This document shows positions 33,412 through 45,481 of a stretch of DNA of 47,989 nucleotides, piece after piece (the stretch's first letter is position 1; the number at the start of each line of letters is the position of its first letter). Below the pieces are notes generated by a model. That model ran no database searches. It worked only from the letters and a program-made list of their open reading frames with translations, and was not told the origin of the DNA. The position numbers were made by a program, and so were the translations under genes. Origin of the DNA: a virus. Lineage: Duplodnaviria; Caudoviricetes. The DNA lies in the IMG/VR virus record IMGVR_UViG_3300030372_003502, positions 1 to 47,989 of that record; one strand, given 5' to 3'.

Positions 33412-34263
33412 ATGAAATATGTAAATAGGAAAGCTATGAAGATTCGAGAATCTGGTCGTAGCAGTGATTTTATTACACCATCATTTGGCTTTGGTTGTTT
33501 ATACAGATGTAGCTATTGCTATATGCGTAGACATTTACCAAATGGCCTTACAATAGCAGAAAATACTAACGATATACTAACAGCATTAGACAGACATATA
33601 TGGCTGTTAGACTGGCCTAAAAAGCCTAATCAAACGCATGAAAAGTATTATACATACGACTTTAGCTGCAATGAAGACTTTGTACTACATGCTAAATATC
33701 ATGAATGGGAAAAGGTATTTGACTACTTTAAATATCATGACAAAGCGTTTGGTACTGCTGCAACAAAGTATGTAAACAAAAACTTATTAGATTATAATGC
33801 AAACAGAAAGGTTAGAATTAGATTTAGTCTAATGCCACAAGTTATATCTAACAAAGTAGAGCCTGGTACTAGTAAAATTATAGACAGAATTAAAGCTGTT
33901 AATGACTTTTACGAAGCAGGTTATGATGTACATCTTAACTACTCACCTATTATAGTTTACGAAAACTATTTGGATGATTATAAAAAGTTGTTTAAATTGG
34001 TAGACACTATTATTGATGATTCAATAAAAGATAACGTCAAAGCTGAATGCATATTCCTTACACACAACAAGAAAATGCATATTATAAACAACGAAGAAGT
34101 AGAAAGATTACTGTGGAAACCTAGTATACAAGAAACTAAGATATCACAGTATGGAAATAAGAACATACGATATAAGTATGAGCTTAAAAGAAAATTTATA
34201 AATAGCTTTTTAAATGTGCACGAACAAGAAGTGCCATGGCAAAAAGTTAGATATATATTCTAA
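33412..34263 (+). CDS. Spore photoproduct lyase-family radical SAM protein
   Basis: GCLYRCSYCY (CxxxCxxC), DFSCNED (Cys at the position of SPL C141), ATK, RIRFSLMP, EPGT...R, GYDVHLNYSPII. Confidence 0.85.
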   Translation: MKYVNRKAMKIRESGRSSDFITPSFGFGCLYRCSYCYMRRHLPNGLTIAENTNDILTALDRHIWLLDWPKKPNQTHEKYYTYDFSCNEDFVLHAKYHEWEKVFDYFKYHDKAFGTAATKYVNKNLLDYNANRKVRIRFSLMPQVISNKVEPGTSKIIDRIKAVNDFYEAGYDVHLNYSPIIVYENYLDDYKKLFKLVDTIIDDSIKDNVKAECIFLTHNKKMHIINNEEVERLLWKPSIQETKISQYGNKNIRYKYELKRKFINSFLNVHEQEVPWQKVRYIF

Positions 34264-34359
34264 ATTTGGGAAGTAGCTAACTTATTAATTAATTATAACT
34301 AATATGAATAATTCGATTATAAGTTGAAATCTCGTCGAAAAGATGCTTCCCATTAAATT

Positions 34360-34516
34360 AGCAAGTACACGGCTACACCATATGTTTGACAACATTGCCG
34401 AATAAGTTAGGTATCCTACTGCGTGAGCACTGGTGGGGCTACTTCCATGGGTTTTTGGTTAACTCCTTTTGACCCGCTCCTTGTGAGTCCTTTAAAACCT
34501 AACTTTTGTACTTGCT
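34360..34516 (+). ncRNA. Candidate multi-branch sRNA containing an anti-Shine-Dalgarno tract
   Basis: Nested stems AGCAAGTACA/TGTACTTGCT and AAGTTAGGT/ACCTAACTT; loop TTTTTGGTTAACTCCTTTT. Confidence 0.5.
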
Positions 34517-34541
34517 ATATATACTGTTTATTTAGTAAATT
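34512..34541 (+). promoter_or_regulatory. sigma70-like promoter TTGCTA-N18-TAAATT
   Basis: 10 nt upstream of ATG 34552, which has no SD. Confidence 0.5.
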
Positions 34542-34551
34542 TAGAGTCCTT

Positions 34552-34788
34552 ATGATAGAGACTAAACAATGTTTTTCATGTGGACAAATGGTATATGTTC
34601 ACGATTGCCACTATCAGTGTACCCGATGTGGATACGCTGAAAATTGACAAGATATATCTGGGAGGTACTCTCAGAAAGGAAAAGTAAATGAAGTCAAGAA
34701 AAAGGGCGAAAATATTAGAAGGAATGAAGGAAAAGTCGTTAATAGCAGAGAAAAATCTAAGAGACTACATAGAGAAAAAGTACGGTAA
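34552..34788 (+). CDS. Zn-ribbon protein, candidate selenoprotein (TGA 34645..34647 as Sec; 31 aa if TGA is a stop, 78 aa if read through)
   Basis: CFSC..C...CTRCGYAEN-TGA-QDIS; hairpin TCTGGGAG-GTA-CTCTCAGA 9 nt after TGA. Confidence 0.55.
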
Positions 34789-34888
34789 GATAAACCTTGG
34801 TTTCGTCGGCGAAGGTGAGTCAAAATCTTGGATAGGAGAGGACAATGAAGCAAATACTAGCAAAAGGGTTCGCAAAAAAGGACACTAA
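34688..34888 (+). CDS. Hypothetical protein
   Basis: 66 aa; AAGGA RBS. Confidence 0.6.
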   Translation: MKSRKRAKILEGMKEKSLIAEKNLRDYIEKKYGKINLGFVGEGESKSWIGEDNEANTSKRVRKKGH

Positions 34889-35376: not shown

Positions 35377-35495
35377 GCCCTAATAAAAGAAAAAAACTTA
35401 TACATCATGTATTTAATGTAATGAACAGGAAAGACAAAGGCAGGAAAAGAAAAGCTGCTACAACAAACAAATGGGGAAGGATTATAAATGGATAA
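35373..35495 (+). CDS. Small basic protein (40 aa)
   Basis: Not in ORF track; ATGA coupled, fills the gap. Confidence 0.5.
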   Translation: MSPNKRKKLIHHVFNVMNRKDKGRKRKAATTNKWGRIING

Positions 35496-35802
35496 CTTGC
35501 AACTTAAAACACCTATTAGCGAATGTGGTTTTTCAAAAAGAACTCAGTCTGTATTAAAAAGTGTTAATATAGAATATCTAGAAGAATTGTCTAATATGTA
35601 CAATGCTAATTATTTACTAGTAAATTTAAGAAAATGGAGAAATGCTGGTAGAAAAACGCTTACGGAAATAGAGTATAAAATAAAAGATAAAGGACTAAGT
35701 CGATATCACATAAAAGTAGATTTAGAGCCTTTTAAAAAAGAAGAAAAAAGTATTGCAGACGGCTTATTTGAAATAGCTAAAGCAATAAGGGAGAGCAAAT
35801 GA
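35488..35802 (+). CDS. Stand-alone RNA polymerase alpha-subunit C-terminal domain-like protein
   Basis: TPISECGFSKRTQSVLKSVNIEYLEEL...WRNAGRKTLTEI parallels the RpoA CTD (LTVRSANCLK..I.YIGDL...PNLGKKSLTEI). Confidence 0.8.
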   Translation: MDNLQLKTPISECGFSKRTQSVLKSVNIEYLEELSNMYNANYLLVNLRKWRNAGRKTLTEIEYKIKDKGLSRYHIKVDLEPFKKEEKSIADGLFEIAKAIRESK

Positions 35803-36154: not shown

Positions 36155-39100
36155 TTAAGGTTTGTAGACACCTTCGTCTCTAACTTGTTTAGCCATTCTT
36201 TGCACTCCATACATTGGCATACCTGTAAATTTATCTATCAACATCATTGGGTTTTCAAATAAGTTGTTAGACGCATAAGGCGAAAAGTCTTTTAATATCC
36301 TACCAAATGGAAACATAGTATATATATGGTAATTAGAGAATCTAGTCCAATCATCTGCAATAAAGGCATCTAGACCTGCTATTGGCAACCTTGCTATAGG
36401 AGGTGTTATTAACTGCAATGGAGCTACTTTAGCAGGCCATGTACCCATAAATGTTCTTTCTCTTTCTTTTTCATCACCAAATATCCAGTCAGCAGTATCT
36501 TGTATATAGTTCCAAGGAGCTGGTAATGCTGTGTCAAACAGAGAGTACATAAATACATTTGCCATTGCAAAGACAAACATATCTAATTGTAATGTGCGTT
36601 TAAACTTTTGGAACTCAGGACTACCTTCTCTTAATCCAAATATCTTAGCTTCTCTAGCAATATCATTTCTAAACCTTACAGCATTCCATTGCCATAATTG
36701 GAAACGAGTCATTATCTTACCAAGAGCTGTTCTAGCAAAACCTGGTCTAAATGGTGCAGAATACAAGAACTGTGTAGCCTGTACACCTTTTTTAGCCTGT
36801 TCTATTAAGAAAGGATGGTCAATATTGTCAATAGCACCGTCAAATCTTTTCCAAGCTTGTACATAGTGTGCCATAAACGCTTGTCTTCTTAGCATCATCT
36901 CTGGTTTAGACATAAACGAAGAAGCAATCTGCATCATAGATTTGTTTAACTTGTGCTTATCCATGAGCTCATTAAAAGTCTTTCTAGATATCTTGCCATC
37001 TTGCATATTCTTGACAACATCTTTCATAAAGTCTTGCTTACCACGCTTTTGTACCTCAGGATTTAATCCCCACTCATTTACCATAAAGTCTGGTATAACA
37101 CCATGCTTAATGATAAATCTGTTTATATCATCTTTAGATTTCCACTCTGGATTTATTCTTCTTAAAAACTTTAGGTCTGTACCCTGTTTCCAGTTTTTTA
37201 TACCTGCACTTTGTAATGTATGTATACTACCACCAAATACGTTACCAACAGCAGACTTAGGATGTGCTAATAAAGAAGCCAACTCAAATTTAGCCTCAAG
37301 ATTAGATATCTTTCTAAGAGTGCTGTACGGTATTTCATTCATTAATTTATCTAAATTAGGATATTTAGACTTTTCGGGTACGATAGCATCTTTAATTTTT
37401 TGCATACGCTTTTTAATTCTATTATCAGCCCACCAACCATAAGGAGTAGCTGATATTTTCATACCTGGGTCATTATATATGTAGTCTGGTATTATTGAGT
37501 TACCACCCATAGCATCTTGTGCGTATAGTTTTAAATAGTTTTCCCACTTTTGCAATAGAGAAAAGTTACTACCATCTCCAAAATCTGTTTTATCCCAGCC
37601 TTTTGCTTTAGCTCTATCTGAGAACTGTTTAATCATTGCTCTAGTAAATATTTGATTTAGCTGTCCAAAGTATGTTTGTGCTAAATTGTTTTGATAAACT
37701 TCGTAAGCACTATGGTCAATAGACCAGCCAGGTAGATGTGTATCCCTTGACATCATATTCTTAGAAGACATATCAAGGTCGGTCCATTTAATTTTTTCAC
37801 CTGTTCTTCTGCCCATTATCTGTTGAGCAGCTAAGTCATATTTTTCCCAGAACTCACCATTGGTATCAACCCAATCACCTGTAAGAGTGTTAAGCCTGTG
37901 CATTAATTTCTTTCTTTCAAGATGTTTATCAGCTTCCGATAAGTCACTTTTTTCTATAAACTCTAATTGTCTTTCTAATGATTTTCTAGCTTCTGTTTTA
38001 GAGTGGAACAAATGTGGGAAATATGTACCAAAGTCATACTGACCTGTTTTGGTTAGCTGTGTACGCTCTAGATATGATAATGTTTTTTCAGCAGCGTTCT
38101 TTCTAGCATTATAAGTTTTAACAAATTCATTATCATCTTCAGTTCTATCTTTAAACTTTTTCTTTTGTATAGACTTTAATCTAGCGTCTAATGTTTCTAT
38201 CATTTCAAGCGTTAAATCTATGTTCATAGACCGTGCTATTTGTCTTAATCCATCAATACCAAAATTAGTAGGTATGTCACCATCTTTCTTATAAGCATTA
38301 GCCATATCTTTAACAAATAGTTTCCAGTTAACTACAGGCTCTTTACCTGTTTCGCCTGGCTCTACATCATAATATTCTATGTCACCATTTTTATTCTTTT
38401 TATAATACTTAGAGAGAGCCTCTGGCTCGCCAGCAATAACTTCTTTAAATACCTTCTCATTCATTCTTTTATAAACTTCAGATATTCTTTCAACTATTTC
38501 TGAGCCAGTGACTTTCTCACGATTCCCTTTTGGATTGGTAATCGAATATGTTTTCTTTAAAGCATCTTGAACCTCTGAATCTTTCCACATTTCTTGATAT
38601 CTGGTTTCATACTCTCCAGCTATTACTTTTCTTTGTTCAGCAGTTCTAGAGCTTTGTTTTTCTTTTGTTATATTATGTTTAAGCTGTCTTTCCATTTTTC
38701 TAACAGCAAAACGTCTAAGTGTTTCTCCGTTCTCTACATTGTCTACATAGAATGATAAATTAGTAGCCATTTCCATTTTTAACTTATCGCCTAAATCAAT
38801 AGATTTTTCACCCATACGACTAATCCAGTCTTGTATACCTTCTAGCCACCAAGATGGTTTCTGTATTGTACCAAATACTTCTCTACCTTTTACTTTAAAC
38901 CAGCCTTTTTTCTTTAGCCATAACACGTCGTATTTCATCATTTCTTTATTGACTGCTCTAGGGAAAAGCATATGATAACGAGCTCTCATATCAGGAGTAT
39001 CTTCACCAAACATTCTTTGCCATATAGAGCCTCTGCGTATATCTTTTAGGAAGTTATTTAACGCAATGTAGTCACTCTTATCCATTTCATTTAACGGCTT

Positions 39101-42100
39101 ACCTAATACACCAGCTGTAATCTCATTTAGATTTATACTTTCCTTTTTATGGAAATACTTAAGATTCTCAGCTAATTCTTGTATTATCTTAACTTGGTCT
39201 TTAGGTAGTTTTTGTTTATATATATTGTCATAGCTCATCATGTCTTCAACATAAGTGTCTTTGACTTTCTCAGTAACATCTTTCTCTATAAAAGGTACTT
39301 TAATATCTTCAAACTTTACTGTTTGTTCTGGTAGTTCTTTAGCTATTTCTTGTACTTTTTTAACTTCTGTTTCTTTTAGCTTAAATGTTTTACCTACTAA
39401 TTCAGAATACTTTCTTAAAAATGTTCTTATAGATGACGATGGTATAGCTTCTGATGCAAAACCTATTTTAATCATTTGTGTTTTTGCACCACTAGTTTGA
39501 TACCATTTAGTAACAGCTCCAGTAAATCCTCGCAAATCCCCTTTGTTAGCTGCTTCTTCTGCTATTTTTTGGATTGTTTTGCCTGCTCTATTGTAGCTAC
39601 CTAACATAAGGTAATCAAATAGTTTCTTTTCTTGAGCAGTATTAAGTGTTTTCTTGTACTCTCTTATAGCATTATCTATTTCTGCTTGGTCCATTTTAGC
39701 AGATGTTTCGGGTTCAGCTTTCTTTACACCTGCTTCTTCCTGAGCTTTTTCTATTGCATCAAATGTATTTTTTAATCTCTCAGTTGCATAATTATGCTCT
39801 TCATAAAAAGTATTAACATCCTGTTTTTCTCTTTGTGATAAATAGCTATTATCTTTAATCTCTTGTACTTTTTTATGTATGTCTTTTATAACATCATCAG
39901 TAAGTATTCCTCTGTGCGATTTAATATAGCTTGATAACAAGTCTAAAGATACCATATCGTGTATATCATTAGTAAGCATATAGTCTTCAGCTTTAGCTGT
40001 AATTTCATCAACTATATCTCTTTTTTCTTTATTAGTTAGTTTGCCATCTTTTACATCACTTCTAAAAGCTACTCTAGCTAATTCAGACCTTTTCTTTTTT
40101 AAATCTCTTTTTCTAATAAACTTAGTAGCAAACTCTCTTTCATACTTAGTTGGCGTAAAAGGCAAGTCTTTTATAAACTTATAAAATAAATCAGGCTCTG
40201 TGTTAAAGTTGTCAGTAATAAGCGTTTCTCTACCTGTAATAGTCCAGGGCTCATATTTAGCAGCTAATATTTTTTGTATAAATTGATTTTCTGGAATAGT
40301 AAATGTACCTCTACCCATAACTGTTTCAATCCATTTTGGAGTATCGTCTTGCATTTCCATTTTAAACCGTTTTGCAAGAGTATTCATCTTTCTATATAGG
40401 TCCTTTACTTTATCTATATCTAATTTATTTAGTATATTAGCACTCCAGCGACCTGTTTCAGTTAATAGCTTGCCTTGCTTGGCTAGCATATTAGTTAATT
40501 GACCTTCATATTGCTCTAAAAAGTCTAATTTACCCCTTACTTCCTCTTCTTTCCATGCTCTGCCTGCTGAATAGTTCTTGCTAAATAAACCACTATTTAG
40601 GTCCATAAAATTCTTAACAAGTCCATCTCTTAATATACTAGCTGCATTTTCTATAGGAACTCCAGGGTCTTTACTAGCAAATGCTTCGTAAAACTTATCA
40701 TTAGAATCAATATCTCTAGTTTTTCTAGACTCTCTAACTTCACCTGTTTTTTTGTTAACAGACTCTTCTATTACAGTTATATTTTTAATTTTAAAATAAG
40801 AGTCATGAAGTTCTTTAAAAAGCCTGTTATAGCTTCTTATACCACCTACATCCATAGGGTCAGAAGTAAACGCTATCATAGATGATGTTAGCCTTCTAGA
40901 ATAATCAAGCCAGTTTTTATCTGTCCTTGCTTCTATTTCAACTTCAAAATTTCTTGCATCCTTACCAAAGCCCCTAGAAAACTTTATTGTCTCTGTTTTA
41001 GTAGGAGTGTTTGACAAAATATCATGAGCAGCTCTCATAGTTTGACTCATTGTTGATACACTACCTAGTAGATTACGACTGTCTACAACATTTTCAGACA
41101 ACTGTCTTCTAACATCAGGTGCGTACATCCATATCTTATCTTTAGCTAATTTCTTAGAATAGTCAGATGCACCTAGAGTAAGTAAGTCTTCCATAGTATC
41201 GCCACGATATTTACCATCAGGCCTATTAACTAAACCACGTTTATTATCTGGTATAAATGCAGCATATCTTTTCTTTTGAGAGTCCGATAGTTTAGCATAC
41301 TCTTCTCTAGTTTTGTATTCATACTTTCCGTTAAACTTTTTCTTTCTACTAACATATTGCACATACTCATTCTTATTAGCTTCATATGCATCTTTCCAAG
41401 ACTTCTTCATACCAAAGCCTTCGTTCATTTCGTTTTTACCACCAAAATATACAAATGCTTCATCACCATCAAGGTCAGCACCACCTAACGCTCTCATGCT
41501 TCTAGGATGCATAAGTACACCATGGCCTTGTCTTCCTGTAAAGCCCATAAATTTAAGTGCGTGTGCACCAGATATAGAGTCCATAGGAACCCTAATAACC
41601 ATAGCTCTCATTACTTCTTCAGCTTCTTCTCTAAACTTATTGTATTTACCATCTTGTAAAGCTTTCCAAAAACCACCTAATGTCTTTTCTTTTACCTTTA
41701 AATGTGTTTTTATAGGCATACGTTTATAATCGTCATCTAAAAAGAATATATCATCTCTTTTATTTAGCTCCTTTAACATCTTATTTTTGCCGTCAAAGTC
41801 TTGCTGTAATGCTAAATCATAAGGCCTCATTCTAGCTGCTAAAGAGTTTTCTACTTTAGGTTTTGTAATTTGCGACATAATATAGTTTTTCATAACCTGT
41901 ATTCTATAAGGTCTAATCCATTTATGTGCAAAAATAGGAGATGCAGCTATGCCTTTACCTTTTGATGCGGCTACACCTTCTTTAATTACTCTATCTGTTA
42001 CTGTATGAAAGTCTTCAAGCTCTCTAACATAATCGTTTAACTCATTAGACCTAACACCATCTTCAGTAGAAGTGCTATAAGCTATCTCTTTGTTTATACC

Positions 42101-45100
42101 TAATAGCTTTTGGTAAACTGCATCAGTAAAAGCAACTGTTTCGTTTGCATTAACAACTCTAATTAAATCATTAACACCTATCTTATCTATATTCTCTAAT
42201 AGCTCTAATTCTTTTTTATCAGTAGGATTCTTTTCATATTCTTCTAACTTAGTATTCCAGAATTTCTCACCTACATACTTCTTATATATAGTTTCGTTAA
42301 ATATATCTTCTATAACATCTGTGGGAATAGGAGCTACTGGGACTTTAGAGTTTAGCTGTCCAAACCACTGCTTAGGAATACGGGCGTTATGCATATACAT
42401 ATCTTTACCCTGTTTAACAGAGTAGTTATATTTTATATGTCTAGGGTCTAAAGTATATATGCTATCATTGTCTAAGGTAATATTTTTACCTTTTATAGAA
42501 TAGTTATTCATTTGTCTTAAGCCCATTTGTTTAGCAGAAGATTCGTGAATAATATAATGTACGCCTTTCTTTTTCATTGCTTCAGTTAAAGCATCACCTG
42601 CTTTATGAAACATAAACTTACCATACATAGAGCCTAATTCTTTACCGTCTTTAGCTACTTCAGGACTAACAATAAACGCTTTATTTTGTCCAGACTCTGG
42701 ATGACCAGCATCTTTATTGTTGTAATTAATAACATCGTTTCTCCCTATTATAGCACCATCTACATGCTCTTTGTATAACTGTGCATCAAATTCTAGTAAT
42801 TTTTCTGAATGTAGGTCTTTAGGTAAATCCTTTAAATCTGGTATAACAATGTATCTAAACTTATTACCAGCCTTTATAAAGTCTTTATCAGGAGTTTCTC
42901 CTTTCTTACCAAACACTTGTTCAGCATACTCTCTGCTACCTGCCCATGACGGAGTAAATAATATTTGCAATCTCTTATTATATGCAAGTGCATTATTTAA
43001 AAAGCCATCTTTATTTTCCCATATTTCTCTTAGATTTTTTCTATTTATAGTTAAACCATTCATACCCAGGTCATACAATATATTAGATACAACAGCATCC
43101 TTATGAAGTTTTACTGCTTCTGACTTTTTCATATCCTTAGAAGCTCTTTTTACAAATGCATTTCTTGCTTCTGTATAAGTAGGTTTGTTAAATACTTTAC
43201 TATTTAAATAAGAATTTATATCAGCAGGTAATTTCTTAGTCTTAGGGTGGAATTTAACAAAGAATAGCTTATCAGCATCACCTCTGCCTCCAAACATATA
43301 CATATCTTTATTAGCCATTTCTTTTTGTATTCTAGAAACAACTTCTTCATATACAATCTTTGAATCAGAGTCTTTTCTAAGGTCTGATAATTTCTTGTCT
43401 TTACCCTTAATAGTTATATGGTCTAGCGTTATAAGGGCCTCTACGGACGTTTTACCGACCTTTCCTCCATTATCTATATATACCTGCTCTATAAGCTTTA
43501 ACGGCTCTACAGCTAGCTTTCTGGACCCTCCAGCACTATATGGTAGTTTTGGGTCAAATTCTTCTACTTTTATATTAGATGGCTTAACAACACTACCTTC
43601 AGCATCTTTTACCTCTGGGCTGTATACTACTCTTGTAAACTTTTGTTTGTGCCCTTTATTTAAAGCAGTCATCCATTGCCTAATACCACCTTCGCTTTCT
43701 GTCTCTAGCTTTATTTCAAACTTAGCAGAAATATCTTCCATTATTTTTTTAGTGTCAGGAGATTTACCACGCTTTACATTTTTAGCAAATAGATTGCTAA
43801 GTTCTTTTGCAGCTACTGTTTTAAGGTCTGTTCTTGACTGGGCTGGTAAATTTGCAACATCCCATAATGGTTTTAAATTATTCTCTACAAAATGCAATGC
43901 TCTAGGACCAACTATATCGTAAGAGCCTTCTGCGTTAACCGTCCCTACATCATCATCGTTTGCTTTTTCTACAAAAGGCTCTAGCTCCACACCAATTCTT
44001 TTTATAGATTTATCTAGTGCTTCTTTTTCTAGTAAATCAGTATCTATATTTTTTCTAAGCTCTTCTATCTTATCTTTTGCAAAGCTAATTCTAATAGGGT
44101 CTTGGTTATCCTCAGTCTTTTTTAATTCTGATTGTAAGCTTGTTTCTAGCTTATTTAACTCTTGTGTATTAGTAGATATAGATACGTCTAAATCTTTCAT
44201 TTTTTTAGTAAATCTATCAACAGCAGGAGTAACCTTTACACCTTCTTGTGTCACTTCTGGTTCTGGTAAAACCATTTTACTTTCTTTAAAAGCCGTATCT
44301 AATCCTTCAGTATCGACTTTTTTCATAAACTTGTAGCCATCTTCAGTAACTACGCCATCTTTTATAAGCACACCTTCAGTATTTAGTCCTCGTGCTTCTA
44401 ATTCTTTAATTAAAAAGTCTGCTCTACCTGCTCTTAATGCTACAGATGCAAAACCACCTATTTGTTTTTCTACTTCTGCTTGCTCAAGTTCGTGTAAGTT
44501 TTTCCACTTCTTGCCCATCATAGTAGGGTCTTTCTTATAATCTAGCTCAGCATTATTTGGAAACTCTTTTTCCATTTCACGCAAGAACTTACCAGCTCCT
44601 TGCTTATACCAAGCTTTTTCTCCAGCTCCAAAGTAAGCACCTAATAAATACTCATATACCTGTTCTGCAGAAGTTGCACCTCTTAATGTAGCTGGTAACC
44701 CTTGGAATACTGAGCCAGCCATACCACGAATAATAGTGTCTGATGCTTTATCGCCTGTATTAACTACATTACCTAATGTTCTAAATACACCGCCAAATAC
44801 AGCACCATGGAATGTACTTTCCATAATAGCATCTACACCACCTTGCCAAGCAGATAAACCACTAGCTAAACCTAGATTAAATGCACCTTCTGATACATGG
44901 GTTAAAGCTCTACCTGTTTTATTTTCTAATAAAAACTTAGCAGCTGTAGCTGTAGCACCCTGTCTACCTTTAGCAGCAGTTTGTAATACAGGGTTTATTG
45001 TTTTGCCTAATTTCTCTGTAGCCTTACCAGATATATAAAGAGGGACAGATTTAACCTTACTTAGTCCTCTTGCTAAATTAACTGCTCCTAAAGCTTTTAA

Positions 45101-45481
45101 TGGAGCCGATAGTATTCCAGGAGCAAAACCAACTAAATGTCCTAAACTTCTAGCTATATTTTCATATTCATTGTCAGGATGGTCGCCTGTTTCTAGAGTA
45201 GTAAATCCACTAGCAAAACCTTTACCAAATTGCATAACAGCTTCGCCAAAATTAAAGTCTCCAGGATAAAATGGGACTTGGTGGTAAGCTGCATGATTTT
45301 GTATAGATTCTAATAGTTGTGGATTAAATCCTGTAGGATTGGATTTATATTGTTTAGTTAACCGTATAGTAGCTTTTTTATCTAAAGTAGGTTGAAACTG
45401 AGGTTGCTTAGCTTCCTCGTTAACATGCTGTTCAGCTTGATTAATTTGCTGTTGTACTAATCCAAAAGGGTTTACTGCCAT
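36155..45481 (-). CDS. Giant single-subunit two-barrel (DPBB) RNA polymerase, probably virion-encapsidated
   Basis: 3108 aa; VIRVP...MRALGGADLDGD (RxP + DxDGD), upstream HVDGAIIGR, YGKFMF, HESSAK; last gene of the ejection-protein block; N-terminal Gly/Ala hydrophobic region. Confidence 0.8.
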   Translation of the reverse strand: MAVNPFGLVQQQINQAEQHVNEEAKQPQFQPTLDKKATIRLTKQYKSNPTGFNPQLLESIQNHAAYHQVPFYPGDFNFGEAVMQFGKGFASGFTTLETGDHPDNEYENIARSLGHLVGFAPGILSAPLKALGAVNLARGLSKVKSVPLYISGKATEKLGKTINPVLQTAAKGRQGATATAAKFLLENKTGRALTHVSEGAFNLGLASGLSAWQGGVDAIMESTFHGAVFGGVFRTLGNVVNTGDKASDTIIRGMAGSVFQGLPATLRGATSAEQVYEYLLGAYFGAGEKAWYKQGAGKFLREMEKEFPNNAELDYKKDPTMMGKKWKNLHELEQAEVEKQIGGFASVALRAGRADFLIKELEARGLNTEGVLIKDGVVTEDGYKFMKKVDTEGLDTAFKESKMVLPEPEVTQEGVKVTPAVDRFTKKMKDLDVSISTNTQELNKLETSLQSELKKTEDNQDPIRISFAKDKIEELRKNIDTDLLEKEALDKSIKRIGVELEPFVEKANDDDVGTVNAEGSYDIVGPRALHFVENNLKPLWDVANLPAQSRTDLKTVAAKELSNLFAKNVKRGKSPDTKKIMEDISAKFEIKLETESEGGIRQWMTALNKGHKQKFTRVVYSPEVKDAEGSVVKPSNIKVEEFDPKLPYSAGGSRKLAVEPLKLIEQVYIDNGGKVGKTSVEALITLDHITIKGKDKKLSDLRKDSDSKIVYEEVVSRIQKEMANKDMYMFGGRGDADKLFFVKFHPKTKKLPADINSYLNSKVFNKPTYTEARNAFVKRASKDMKKSEAVKLHKDAVVSNILYDLGMNGLTINRKNLREIWENKDGFLNNALAYNKRLQILFTPSWAGSREYAEQVFGKKGETPDKDFIKAGNKFRYIVIPDLKDLPKDLHSEKLLEFDAQLYKEHVDGAIIGRNDVINYNNKDAGHPESGQNKAFIVSPEVAKDGKELGSMYGKFMFHKAGDALTEAMKKKGVHYIIHESSAKQMGLRQMNNYSIKGKNITLDNDSIYTLDPRHIKYNYSVKQGKDMYMHNARIPKQWFGQLNSKVPVAPIPTDVIEDIFNETIYKKYVGEKFWNTKLEEYEKNPTDKKELELLENIDKIGVNDLIRVVNANETVAFTDAVYQKLLGINKEIAYSTSTEDGVRSNELNDYVRELEDFHTVTDRVIKEGVAASKGKGIAASPIFAHKWIRPYRIQVMKNYIMSQITKPKVENSLAARMRPYDLALQQDFDGKNKMLKELNKRDDIFFLDDDYKRMPIKTHLKVKEKTLGGFWKALQDGKYNKFREEAEEVMRAMVIRVPMDSISGAHALKFMGFTGRQGHGVLMHPRSMRALGGADLDGDEAFVYFGGKNEMNEGFGMKKSWKDAYEANKNEYVQYVSRKKKFNGKYEYKTREEYAKLSDSQKKRYAAFIPDNKRGLVNRPDGKYRGDTMEDLLTLGASDYSKKLAKDKIWMYAPDVRRQLSENVVDSRNLLGSVSTMSQTMRAAHDILSNTPTKTETIKFSRGFGKDARNFEVEIEARTDKNWLDYSRRLTSSMIAFTSDPMDVGGIRSYNRLFKELHDSYFKIKNITVIEESVNKKTGEVRESRKTRDIDSNDKFYEAFASKDPGVPIENAASILRDGLVKNFMDLNSGLFSKNYSAGRAWKEEEVRGKLDFLEQYEGQLTNMLAKQGKLLTETGRWSANILNKLDIDKVKDLYRKMNTLAKRFKMEMQDDTPKWIETVMGRGTFTIPENQFIQKILAAKYEPWTITGRETLITDNFNTEPDLFYKFIKDLPFTPTKYEREFATKFIRKRDLKKKRSELARVAFRSDVKDGKLTNKEKRDIVDEITAKAEDYMLTNDIHDMVSLDLLSSYIKSHRGILTDDVIKDIHKKVQEIKDNSYLSQREKQDVNTFYEEHNYATERLKNTFDAIEKAQEEAGVKKAEPETSAKMDQAEIDNAIREYKKTLNTAQEKKLFDYLMLGSYNRAGKTIQKIAEEAANKGDLRGFTGAVTKWYQTSGAKTQMIKIGFASEAIPSSSIRTFLRKYSELVGKTFKLKETEVKKVQEIAKELPEQTVKFEDIKVPFIEKDVTEKVKDTYVEDMMSYDNIYKQKLPKDQVKIIQELAENLKYFHKKESINLNEITAGVLGKPLNEMDKSDYIALNNFLKDIRRGSIWQRMFGEDTPDMRARYHMLFPRAVNKEMMKYDVLWLKKKGWFKVKGREVFGTIQKPSWWLEGIQDWISRMGEKSIDLGDKLKMEMATNLSFYVDNVENGETLRRFAVRKMERQLKHNITKEKQSSRTAEQRKVIAGEYETRYQEMWKDSEVQDALKKTYSITNPKGNREKVTGSEIVERISEVYKRMNEKVFKEVIAGEPEALSKYYKKNKNGDIEYYDVEPGETGKEPVVNWKLFVKDMANAYKKDGDIPTNFGIDGLRQIARSMNIDLTLEMIETLDARLKSIQKKKFKDRTEDDNEFVKTYNARKNAAEKTLSYLERTQLTKTGQYDFGTYFPHLFHSKTEARKSLERQLEFIEKSDLSEADKHLERKKLMHRLNTLTGDWVDTNGEFWEKYDLAAQQIMGRRTGEKIKWTDLDMSSKNMMSRDTHLPGWSIDHSAYEVYQNNLAQTYFGQLNQIFTRAMIKQFSDRAKAKGWDKTDFGDGSNFSLLQKWENYLKLYAQDAMGGNSIIPDYIYNDPGMKISATPYGWWADNRIKKRMQKIKDAIVPEKSKYPNLDKLMNEIPYSTLRKISNLEAKFELASLLAHPKSAVGNVFGGSIHTLQSAGIKNWKQGTDLKFLRRINPEWKSKDDINRFIIKHGVIPDFMVNEWGLNPEVQKRGKQDFMKDVVKNMQDGKISRKTFNELMDKHKLNKSMMQIASSFMSKPEMMLRRQAFMAHYVQAWKRFDGAIDNIDHPFLIEQAKKGVQATQFLYSAPFRPGFARTALGKIMTRFQLWQWNAVRFRNDIAREAKIFGLREGSPEFQKFKRTLQLDMFVFAMANVFMYSLFDTALPAPWNYIQDTADWIFGDEKERERTFMGTWPAKVAPLQLITPPIARLPIAGLDAFIADDWTRFSNYHIYTMFPFGRILKDFSPYASNNLFENPMMLIDKFTGMPMYGVQRMAKQVRDEGVYKP

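Follow-up and report, generated by a model that had tools for sequence, protein, structure and literature searches.

A small gene for a predicted zinc-ribbon protein with an in-frame TGA in a marine phage

The window analyzed here, 47,989 nt long, spans an entire virus record with an estimated completeness of 94%. It comes from a marine phage whose genes include those for a terminase, a portal, a major capsid protein, a primase-helicase and a Sak4-like protein. Among the small genes past the replication block, on the plus strand, lies a predicted selenoprotein gene (34552..34788). Its ATG at 34552 is followed, after 31 codons, by an in-frame TGA at 34645–34647 (+; codon 32, the predicted selenocysteine, where bacterial homologues have Cys), and the frame then stays open for 46 codons to a TAA ending at 34788. 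These coordinates agree with an earlier note on this DNA, which had described a zinc-ribbon ORF with an in-frame TGA and an open tail of this length. If the UGA is read through, the product has 78 aa, with a conserved part of approximately residues 1–41 and a variable, Lys-rich remainder whose frame differs from that of the next gene, with which it overlaps. The codons ahead of the TGA (34552..34644, +) encode a zinc-ribbon core with C7xxC10, C23xxC26G and an invariant C19 and H20, with predicted strands and weak zinc-ribbon matches; these 31 aa are also the product if the UGA terminates. Beyond the TGA come a 9-nt spacer (34648..34656, +; codons Q/H-D-I), a bacterial SECIS-type hairpin (34657..34675, +) and the next ORF (34688..34888, +), which encodes 66 aa without a family match and is a neighbor only, differing between subfamilies. 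Directly upstream of the gene lies a conserved multi-stem element (34359..34517, +).

Marine metagenome runs contain near-identical DNA; apart from two possible source runs, three runs of one study carry 70–95% of the sequence words, and TARA names appear on related contigs. The runs listed include none of RNA, which speaks neither for nor against expression. Contigs of three public runs (X4, X6 and X7) cover the site with the TGA and the stem letters unchanged in all, so the TGA is not an assembly error; run X3 yielded no contig covering the TGA site. Within a hand-picked list of 54 complete ORFs of the phage, 35 end in TAA, 11 in TAG and 8 in TGA (the selenoprotein gene and seven others). 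The frames of these seven close within 0–33 codons past the TGA, and long phage genes are open under table 11. TGA is thus a normal but minority stop in the phage, and the genome as a whole is not recoded by a reassignment of UGA (code 4 or 25). The earlier note had placed the other TGA stops that it checked in ATGA overlaps, which is correct for six of the seven (A-TGA context) and wrong for one (TGA-TAA).

Several other genes of the phage deserve mention. A 3108-aa protein without a PHROG match (36155–45481, −) has a DxDGD motif in its translation and shares 29% identity with a G303 protein over 1330 aa; judged by its sequence, it is likely a virion RNA polymerase. The phage that carries it is half the size of crAss-like phages. 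A radical SAM gene resembling spore photoproduct lyase (33412–34263, +; TIGR03886, 299 bits, below cut-off) is absent at the matching place in relatives such as L053, L054 and L118. A stand-alone RNA polymerase alpha C-terminal domain (35488–35802, +; PF03118 over cut-off) is a possible transcription decoy. A promoter scan returned 4 sites vs 6.1 expected.

Codon 32 is TGA in viral sequences and Cys in bacterial genomes

We assembled 75 distinct homologous DNA sequences (core plus 48 nt) from viral and metagenome contigs and from bacterial genomes. Codon 32 is TGA in all 56 distinct viral or metagenome sequences, with no TAA, TAG or TGG among them, and TGT or TGC (Cys) in all 19 distinct sequences from bacterial genomes, so that a conserved in-frame UGA aligns with Cys. 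Four contig scans had left codon 32 free or allowed any TGN, and no family member in them had TGG, TAA or TAG. The earlier note had held that homologues ending here with TAA or TAG, or a lack of Cys/TGA pairing, would speak against selenocysteine; no such ending turned up in the 56 sequences, and Cys is paired with TGA in the bacterial-genome sequences and in one viral-subfamily member (P0094). The set of 75 leaves out L135 (degraded) and L201 (not parsed by the search pattern), and L011 and L060 end before codon 32. We also dropped 4 of the 32 matches of one contig scan as off-frame unrelated sequence, together with non-family matches among the 37 loci of another.

The TGA forms spread over six deep branches. 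Aligned distant subfamilies are 36–50% identical to the window protein (the CGY subfamily lies outside that alignment), and three complete phage records with distant forms have capsid proteins 37–69% identical to that of the window phage. The genes flanking the selenoprotein gene vary between subfamilies. Because the TGA sequences are related by descent, the 56 are not a count of independent events. A tree of 37 columns requires two Sec/Cys changes; as it is unrooted and many of its forks are open, we do not use it to infer which way the gene was transferred. Within the viral L110/L111 TGA subfamily, next to the TGA form L111, lies the Cys form P0094, which likely reflects a recent Sec-to-Cys change. 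We found no cellular Sec form, with a whole-GTDB scan that was able to detect Cys forms only; such a lack is unusual. One degraded bacterial copy (L135, 1465–1614; G225:C24) has a TGA at the C23 position and a second in its tail and has lost C10, and looks like a pseudogene, not a Sec form.

From the protein database come 106 relatives, of which about 66 have Cys (62 parsed, 4 by eye), 26 have Trp, 1 has Tyr, 2 were not parsed and 11 are cut off exactly at codon 32. The Trp entries all come from ENA and from short contigs, the longest 1324 nt, and loci near-identical to them (L064, L074, L100 and L170) have TGA in the DNA; we therefore read these 26 as probably code-4 gene calls on short contigs.

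A SECIS-type hairpin follows the TGA

The hairpin consists of an 8-bp stem (34657–34664 with 34668–34675) and a loop GUA (34665–34667) 17 nt from the UGA, with a folding energy of −9.6 kcal/mol; opening the closing pair gives a pentaloop, GGUAC, 16 nt from the UGA. This is the structure that the earlier note had pointed out, an 8-bp stem 9 nt 3' of the TGA with a loop starting with G 16–17 nt out. The bacterial SECIS model given in PMC13188914 has a loop of 3–9 nt, a stem of 4–16 bp, a G at loop position 1 or 2 with a G or U after it, a loop 16–37 nt from the UGA and an MFE below −7.5 kcal/mol, and the window hairpin falls within all four published constraints of that model. Taken alone, it does not exceed chance (z −1.54; 15 of 200 shuffled sequences reach an equally good fold), and a lenient version of the published model was passed by 74 of 400 random TGA triplets of the window. 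Applied across the family at −7.5 kcal/mol, the lenient model passed 21/32 TGA genes and 1/7 Cys genes, against the same 74/400 random TGAs.

Comparison of homologues gave a sharper result. Among 12 distinct close sequences, 95 of 96 cells are paired and 3 of the 8 pairs show compensatory changes, with slid controls at 40–63%, so the hairpin is conserved, contrary to the refuting outcome that the earlier note had named; a shuffle test on close sequences is inflated by their relatedness. In L055, a Gly is changed to Glu and the stem is kept. Distant subfamilies have stems of unrelated sequence and keep the place and the loop type (AGUUC, AGUUA, AGGUA, GGUC, AGUU). A narrower test, defined after the family had been seen (a loop of 3–5 nt that begins with G[G/U] 16–21 nt past the codon, and a minimum of 4 pairs), was passed by 48/50 TGA genes, 0/19 Cys genes and 61/1443 background TGAs. 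Once homologues are used, the hairpin is far above chance.

The element upstream of the gene (34359–34517) is built of an outer stem of 10 bp and an inner one of 8 bp, a hairpin with a GUGA tetraloop, and inserts that vary, and 6 of its 29 predicted pairs are changed on both sides among 16 sequences. Searched against Rfam, the window has no match that reaches gathering score, and the stretch 34200–34800 lacks any match even at E up to 1. Nhmmer did not find the element beside distant subfamilies, confining it to the close phage clade, and for this reason we do not count it as a required part. It is possibly an undescribed phage ncRNA or leader.

Coding constraint continues past the TGA

The frame downstream of the TGA behaves as coding sequence. 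D34, I35, S36 and R38 are invariant in 24/24 close relatives, with synonymous variation, and the three unpaired spacer codons change only at third positions in the same 24. Within the 27 nt that follow the TGA, the ratio of synonymous to non-synonymous alternative codons is 7/7 in the read-through frame vs 2/11 and 3/12 in the two remaining frames. Beyond codon 32, homology with the Cys proteins likewise persists. Conservation past the TGA, which the earlier note had proposed as a check, is thus present at residues 34–36 and 38. The tail past about residue 41 is unconserved, and the frame is open for 12–55 codons in all 56 TGA sequences.

The same note had raised the overlap of about 100 nt with the next ORF as a caveat. 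The overlap with the ORF at 34688–34888 measures 101 nt, and 12 nt separate the end of the hairpin from the start codon of the next gene in the close clade; next ORFs begin 4–99 nt past the TGA in most subfamilies. In L100, L122 and L101, however, the read-through ends ahead of the next gene's start, which removes the overlap as an objection. In the L100/L122 subfamily, the gene lies among large, probably structural genes, with one of 306 aa before it and two of 211 and 255 aa after it, and not among small early genes.

Predicted fold and proposed function

The 28 aligned sequences share invariant C7, C10, C19, H20, C23, C26, G27, N31 and position 32; the CGY subfamily, which stands outside this alignment, has Gly in place of H20. 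Conservation covers all six Cys/Sec positions as well as an acidic residue at the second place past the Sec, in the motif CxxCG-x4-U-x-D/E. Two CxxC knuckles on beta-hairpins, the hallmark of a C4 zinc ribbon, are formed by C7, C10, C23 and C26 in 28/28. The structural model is a three-stranded ribbon with pLDDT 85–88 over residues 1–30 and a mean of 57 over residues 31–40. Weak structure and sequence matches are nearly all zinc ribbons, Foldseek gave no match at E 0.001, and the best VIA Z was 3.7; with no specific fold match, we borrow no specific function from the fold. The fold is predicted to be a zinc ribbon, with iron as a possible metal instead of zinc.

In the usual hairpin register of a CxxCG knuckle, as in rubredoxin and consistent with strands at residues 20–22 and 29–30, C19 would lie opposite U32. 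Given the pLDDT of 57 at residues 31–40, this contact is geometry by analogy and not a measured distance. Four cysteines suffice for the ribbon, which leaves C19 and U32 over; as these two would face each other, we propose a zinc scaffold with a Cys–Sec pair. C7, C10, C23 and C26 would bind zinc as the scaffold, and C19 with Sec32 might act as a selenenyl-sulfide switch or a soft-metal site, an assignment by analogy that we offer tentatively, as possible and somewhat less than even in its chances. The phage protein would then be a more reactive mimic of a host redox- or metal-sensing microprotein.

Selenocysteine machinery and a candidate host

ARAGORN and Rfam found no tRNA in the phage window, five related phage records carry tRNA-Asn only (in 2/5), and a PHROGs scan of 46 proteins found no Sec enzyme in the phage. 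As neither a tRNA nor a Sec enzyme turned up in the phage, the UGA must be decoded with host machinery. In Marinimicrobia genomes, the Cys form sits on the chromosome with housekeeping genes as neighbors. This phylum has 7 strong family matches in 301 genomes, and one of its orders (that of G001, with small marine genomes) has the family in 20/74 genomes, one of them degraded (19/74 with the Cys form). SelB scored over cut-off in 61/74 genomes of the order, and SelA did so in 3/4 candidate hosts. SelD has an in-frame TGA in 5/5 candidate hosts, and a SelW-like gene has a TGA in 3/5. The host selD hairpin has a loop AGU(UU), like the viral loops, in 3–4 of the 5, but 31–33 nt out, and MFE folds of 3 SelW-like host genes contained no matching G-loop hairpin.

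The phage capsid protein matches 3/301 Marinimicrobia genomes (31–34% identity), with terminase and portal adjoining, and 0/301 genomes of the control phylum (that of G002); the phage terminase matched 0/74 genomes of the order holding the Cys gene. One such head module (terminase, portal and capsid; L148, L149), about 30% identical, lies at approximately 214,400–220,300 of G190:C1, within a 2.14-Mb Marinimicrobia contig, and its gene order is repeated in G294:C31 and G007:C75; it looks like a provirus-like relative of the phage group. The phylum of G002 has the family in 1/301 genomes, G002 itself only, and since this locus is nearly identical to Marinimicrobia L125 we treat it as a probable mis-bin.

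We consider the host to be probably, though by no means surely, a Sec-using Marinimicrobia (SAR406; Fidelibacterota) lineage with a chromosomal Cys version of the gene, on host tests that covered Marinimicrobia and the phylum of G002. A Sec-utilizing host, implied by the earlier note, was in this way found as a candidate only. Among the papers listed for Marinimicrobia with selenocysteine, none has this trait in its title.

Discussion

The conserved recoding site at codon 32 is real, as seen across the homologues, and its UGA is in all likelihood decoded as selenocysteine by host machinery. The gene would most likely belong to a new phage-encoded selenoprotein family decoded by the host, with high confidence on our part; an uncharacterized 78-aa selenoprotein family of Actinomarina, described in the available part of bioRxiv 10.64898/2026.04.03.716425, stood outside the comparison. 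Inferred from E. coli-type SECIS biology, a host SelB-GTP-Sec-tRNA complex would bind the G(G/U)-loop hairpin 16–21 nt downstream and decode the UGA. When selenium is short, the ribosome would stop at the UGA and leave the bare 31-aa ribbon. Since termination would leave an intact ribbon without the Cys–Sec pair, the proportion of the two products would depend on how much selenium is available.

If the TGA were an ordinary stop, translation would yield a zinc ribbon of 31 aa, and the hairpin would act on the next gene, either in regulation or as a stability element. All four ribbon cysteines do lie within the 31-aa piece, 11 database entries end at the codon, and the hairpin alone is not significant. 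An ordinary stop would, however, be expected to drift to TAA or TAG, which end 46/54 window genes, yet TGA is kept in 56/56; the unpaired spacer varies at third positions only, Cys-protein homology extends past the codon and the hairpin is absent from 19/19 Cys genes. Together these make termination very improbable. We judge it very improbable that the UGA is read as Trp or Cys instead of Sec, through a suppressor, near-cognate reading or an alternative genetic code. The 26/106 database proteins with Trp at this column speak for such reading; against it, no family member from the DNA scans that allowed TGG has one, the seven other TGA-ended phage genes have frames that close within 0–33 codons, no tRNA lies in the window and only tRNA-Asn in the five related records, and the codon aligns with a cellular Cys and is followed by a hairpin of SECIS geometry. 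The conserved stretch might also belong to the 15-codon TTG mini-ORF (34644–34691) that the earlier note had entered as a caveat, or reflect the overlapping downstream gene. The mini-ORF is present in the window and in L002, but of 24 close relatives only 2 have its 15 codons, 8 end it after 2 codons and 5 have a CTG start; changes are mostly non-synonymous in its frame, and the conserved codons 33–41 lie upstream of the next gene's start. That caveat has fallen away, and we give the mini-ORF and downstream-gene explanations next to no weight.

Selenocysteine could also be inserted for a regulatory and not a catalytic purpose: the UGA-SECIS would sense selenium or the state of the host and link its translation with that of the next gene, or it would draw SelB and Sec-tRNA away from host selenoproteins. 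This is compatible with selenocysteine decoding and differs in what is selected. The short distances to the next ORFs favor it (4–99 nt after the TGA in most subfamilies), as do the read-through that crosses the next gene's start in the close clade, 12 nt past the end of the hairpin, and the unconserved tail past residue 41 or so. The downstream genes nevertheless vary by subfamily, and in L100/L122 and L101 the read-through frame closes ahead of the next ORF. All six Cys/Sec positions are conserved, as is the acidic residue at the second place past the Sec, and bacteria keep the protein with Cys and without the hairpin, which points to a function at the protein level. A purely regulatory role appears unlikely.

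Returning to the selenoprotein itself, we lean slightly toward a broader account in which viruses, not cells, hold the Sec form of a widespread family. Marine Marinimicrobia phages would upgrade a Cys microprotein of the host and use the host's SelB, and selenium supply would gate a redox switch during infection.

The gene resembles bacterial SelB/SECIS genes, with E. coli formate dehydrogenase as the prototype, in its in-frame UGA aligned with Cys and its in-ORF SECIS hairpin (model in the accessible portion of PMC13188914). It differs from them in being phage-encoded without Sec machinery, and the Sec forms found are viral or metagenomic whereas the bacterial-genome forms are all Cys. The family is absent from the 119-family table of PMC13188914, in the parts compared, and the words 'phage' and 'virus' do not occur in this 2026 catalogue of 119 prokaryotic families; both are also absent from the BSepDB paper (PMC13326102), and 'phage' from deep-Sep (PMC12013277). 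Four predicted selenoproteins, NF041197 (dual CXXC motif protein), NF049953 (protein DG), TIGR02605 (FmdB family) and NF041374 (GOS_B), are likewise small and Cys-rich with Sec near a CxxC, unlike the present motif CxxCG-x4-U-x-D/E, in which the Sec lies past the second knuckle. No curated selenoprotein model scored over cut-off: NF041197 matched 1/28 members at E 0.025, and NF049953, NF041374 and TIGR02605 matched 0/28 at E up to 0.5. GOS_A, GOS_B and FmdB sequences carry other motifs in the available part of PMC2398784.

HVO_2523-like microproteins (NF041914, PF28087) and the one-domain C(P)XCG Haloferax microproteins (PMC6562870, in its accessible part) share the size, the two CxxC knuckles and an extra Cys; the mechanisms of the haloarchaeal C(P)XCG microproteins are described as unknown in that part of the source. 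The HVO_2523-like model (NF041914) aligns weakly over residues 6–34, with an ESM feature score of 0.91 and 157/256 features shared. Membership in the HVO_2523 family was rejected at 11.2 and 12.7 bits for two Cys members vs a cut-off of 60, with 1/28 members at E 0.036, and no Sec form is listed in that family, unlike here. The earlier note had proposed small Zn-ribbon relatives with Cys at this position; this was right for the bacterial homologues (19/19), but the motif it gave, CxxCG..E.CSD, is that of the HVO_2523-like proteins, a distant look-alike only at 11–13 bits. PHROGs has no family for the read-through protein, Pfam and NCBIfam gave generic zinc-ribbon matches only, below cut-off, and a search of GenBank phages gave a single chance-level match (E 2).

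Viral genes that borrow the host's Sec machinery have a precedent in the poxvirus selenoproteins, molluscum contagiosum MC066L and a fowlpox GPX4 homologue. Those are captured eukaryotic glutathione peroxidases with a eukaryotic SECIS, in contrast to the phage gene, an uncharacterized microprotein with a bacterial-type SECIS. A 2019 review calls these two the only proven viral selenoproteins (PMC6769590, accessible part), only poxvirus selenoproteins are named as established in the portion available of PMC8310308, and tRNA-Sec calls in huge phages appear without a named selenoprotein in the available part of PMC10747093. Our full-text literature search, with most subscription journals outside its scope, found no description of a phage selenoprotein.

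The family also exposes an annotation blind spot, as databases cut such genes at codon 31 or call the residue Trp. The split between Sec in viruses and Cys in cells would offer a natural experiment on the advantage of Sec over Cys, in a protein whose small size allows it to be made synthetically. As a marker for host prediction, the gene would imply a host with selABCD. The retention of the UGA and its SECIS across phages with capsids 37–69% alike indicates that phages are able to rely on the 21st amino acid, and a phage selenoprotein family of this kind would tie marine infection to selenium supply.
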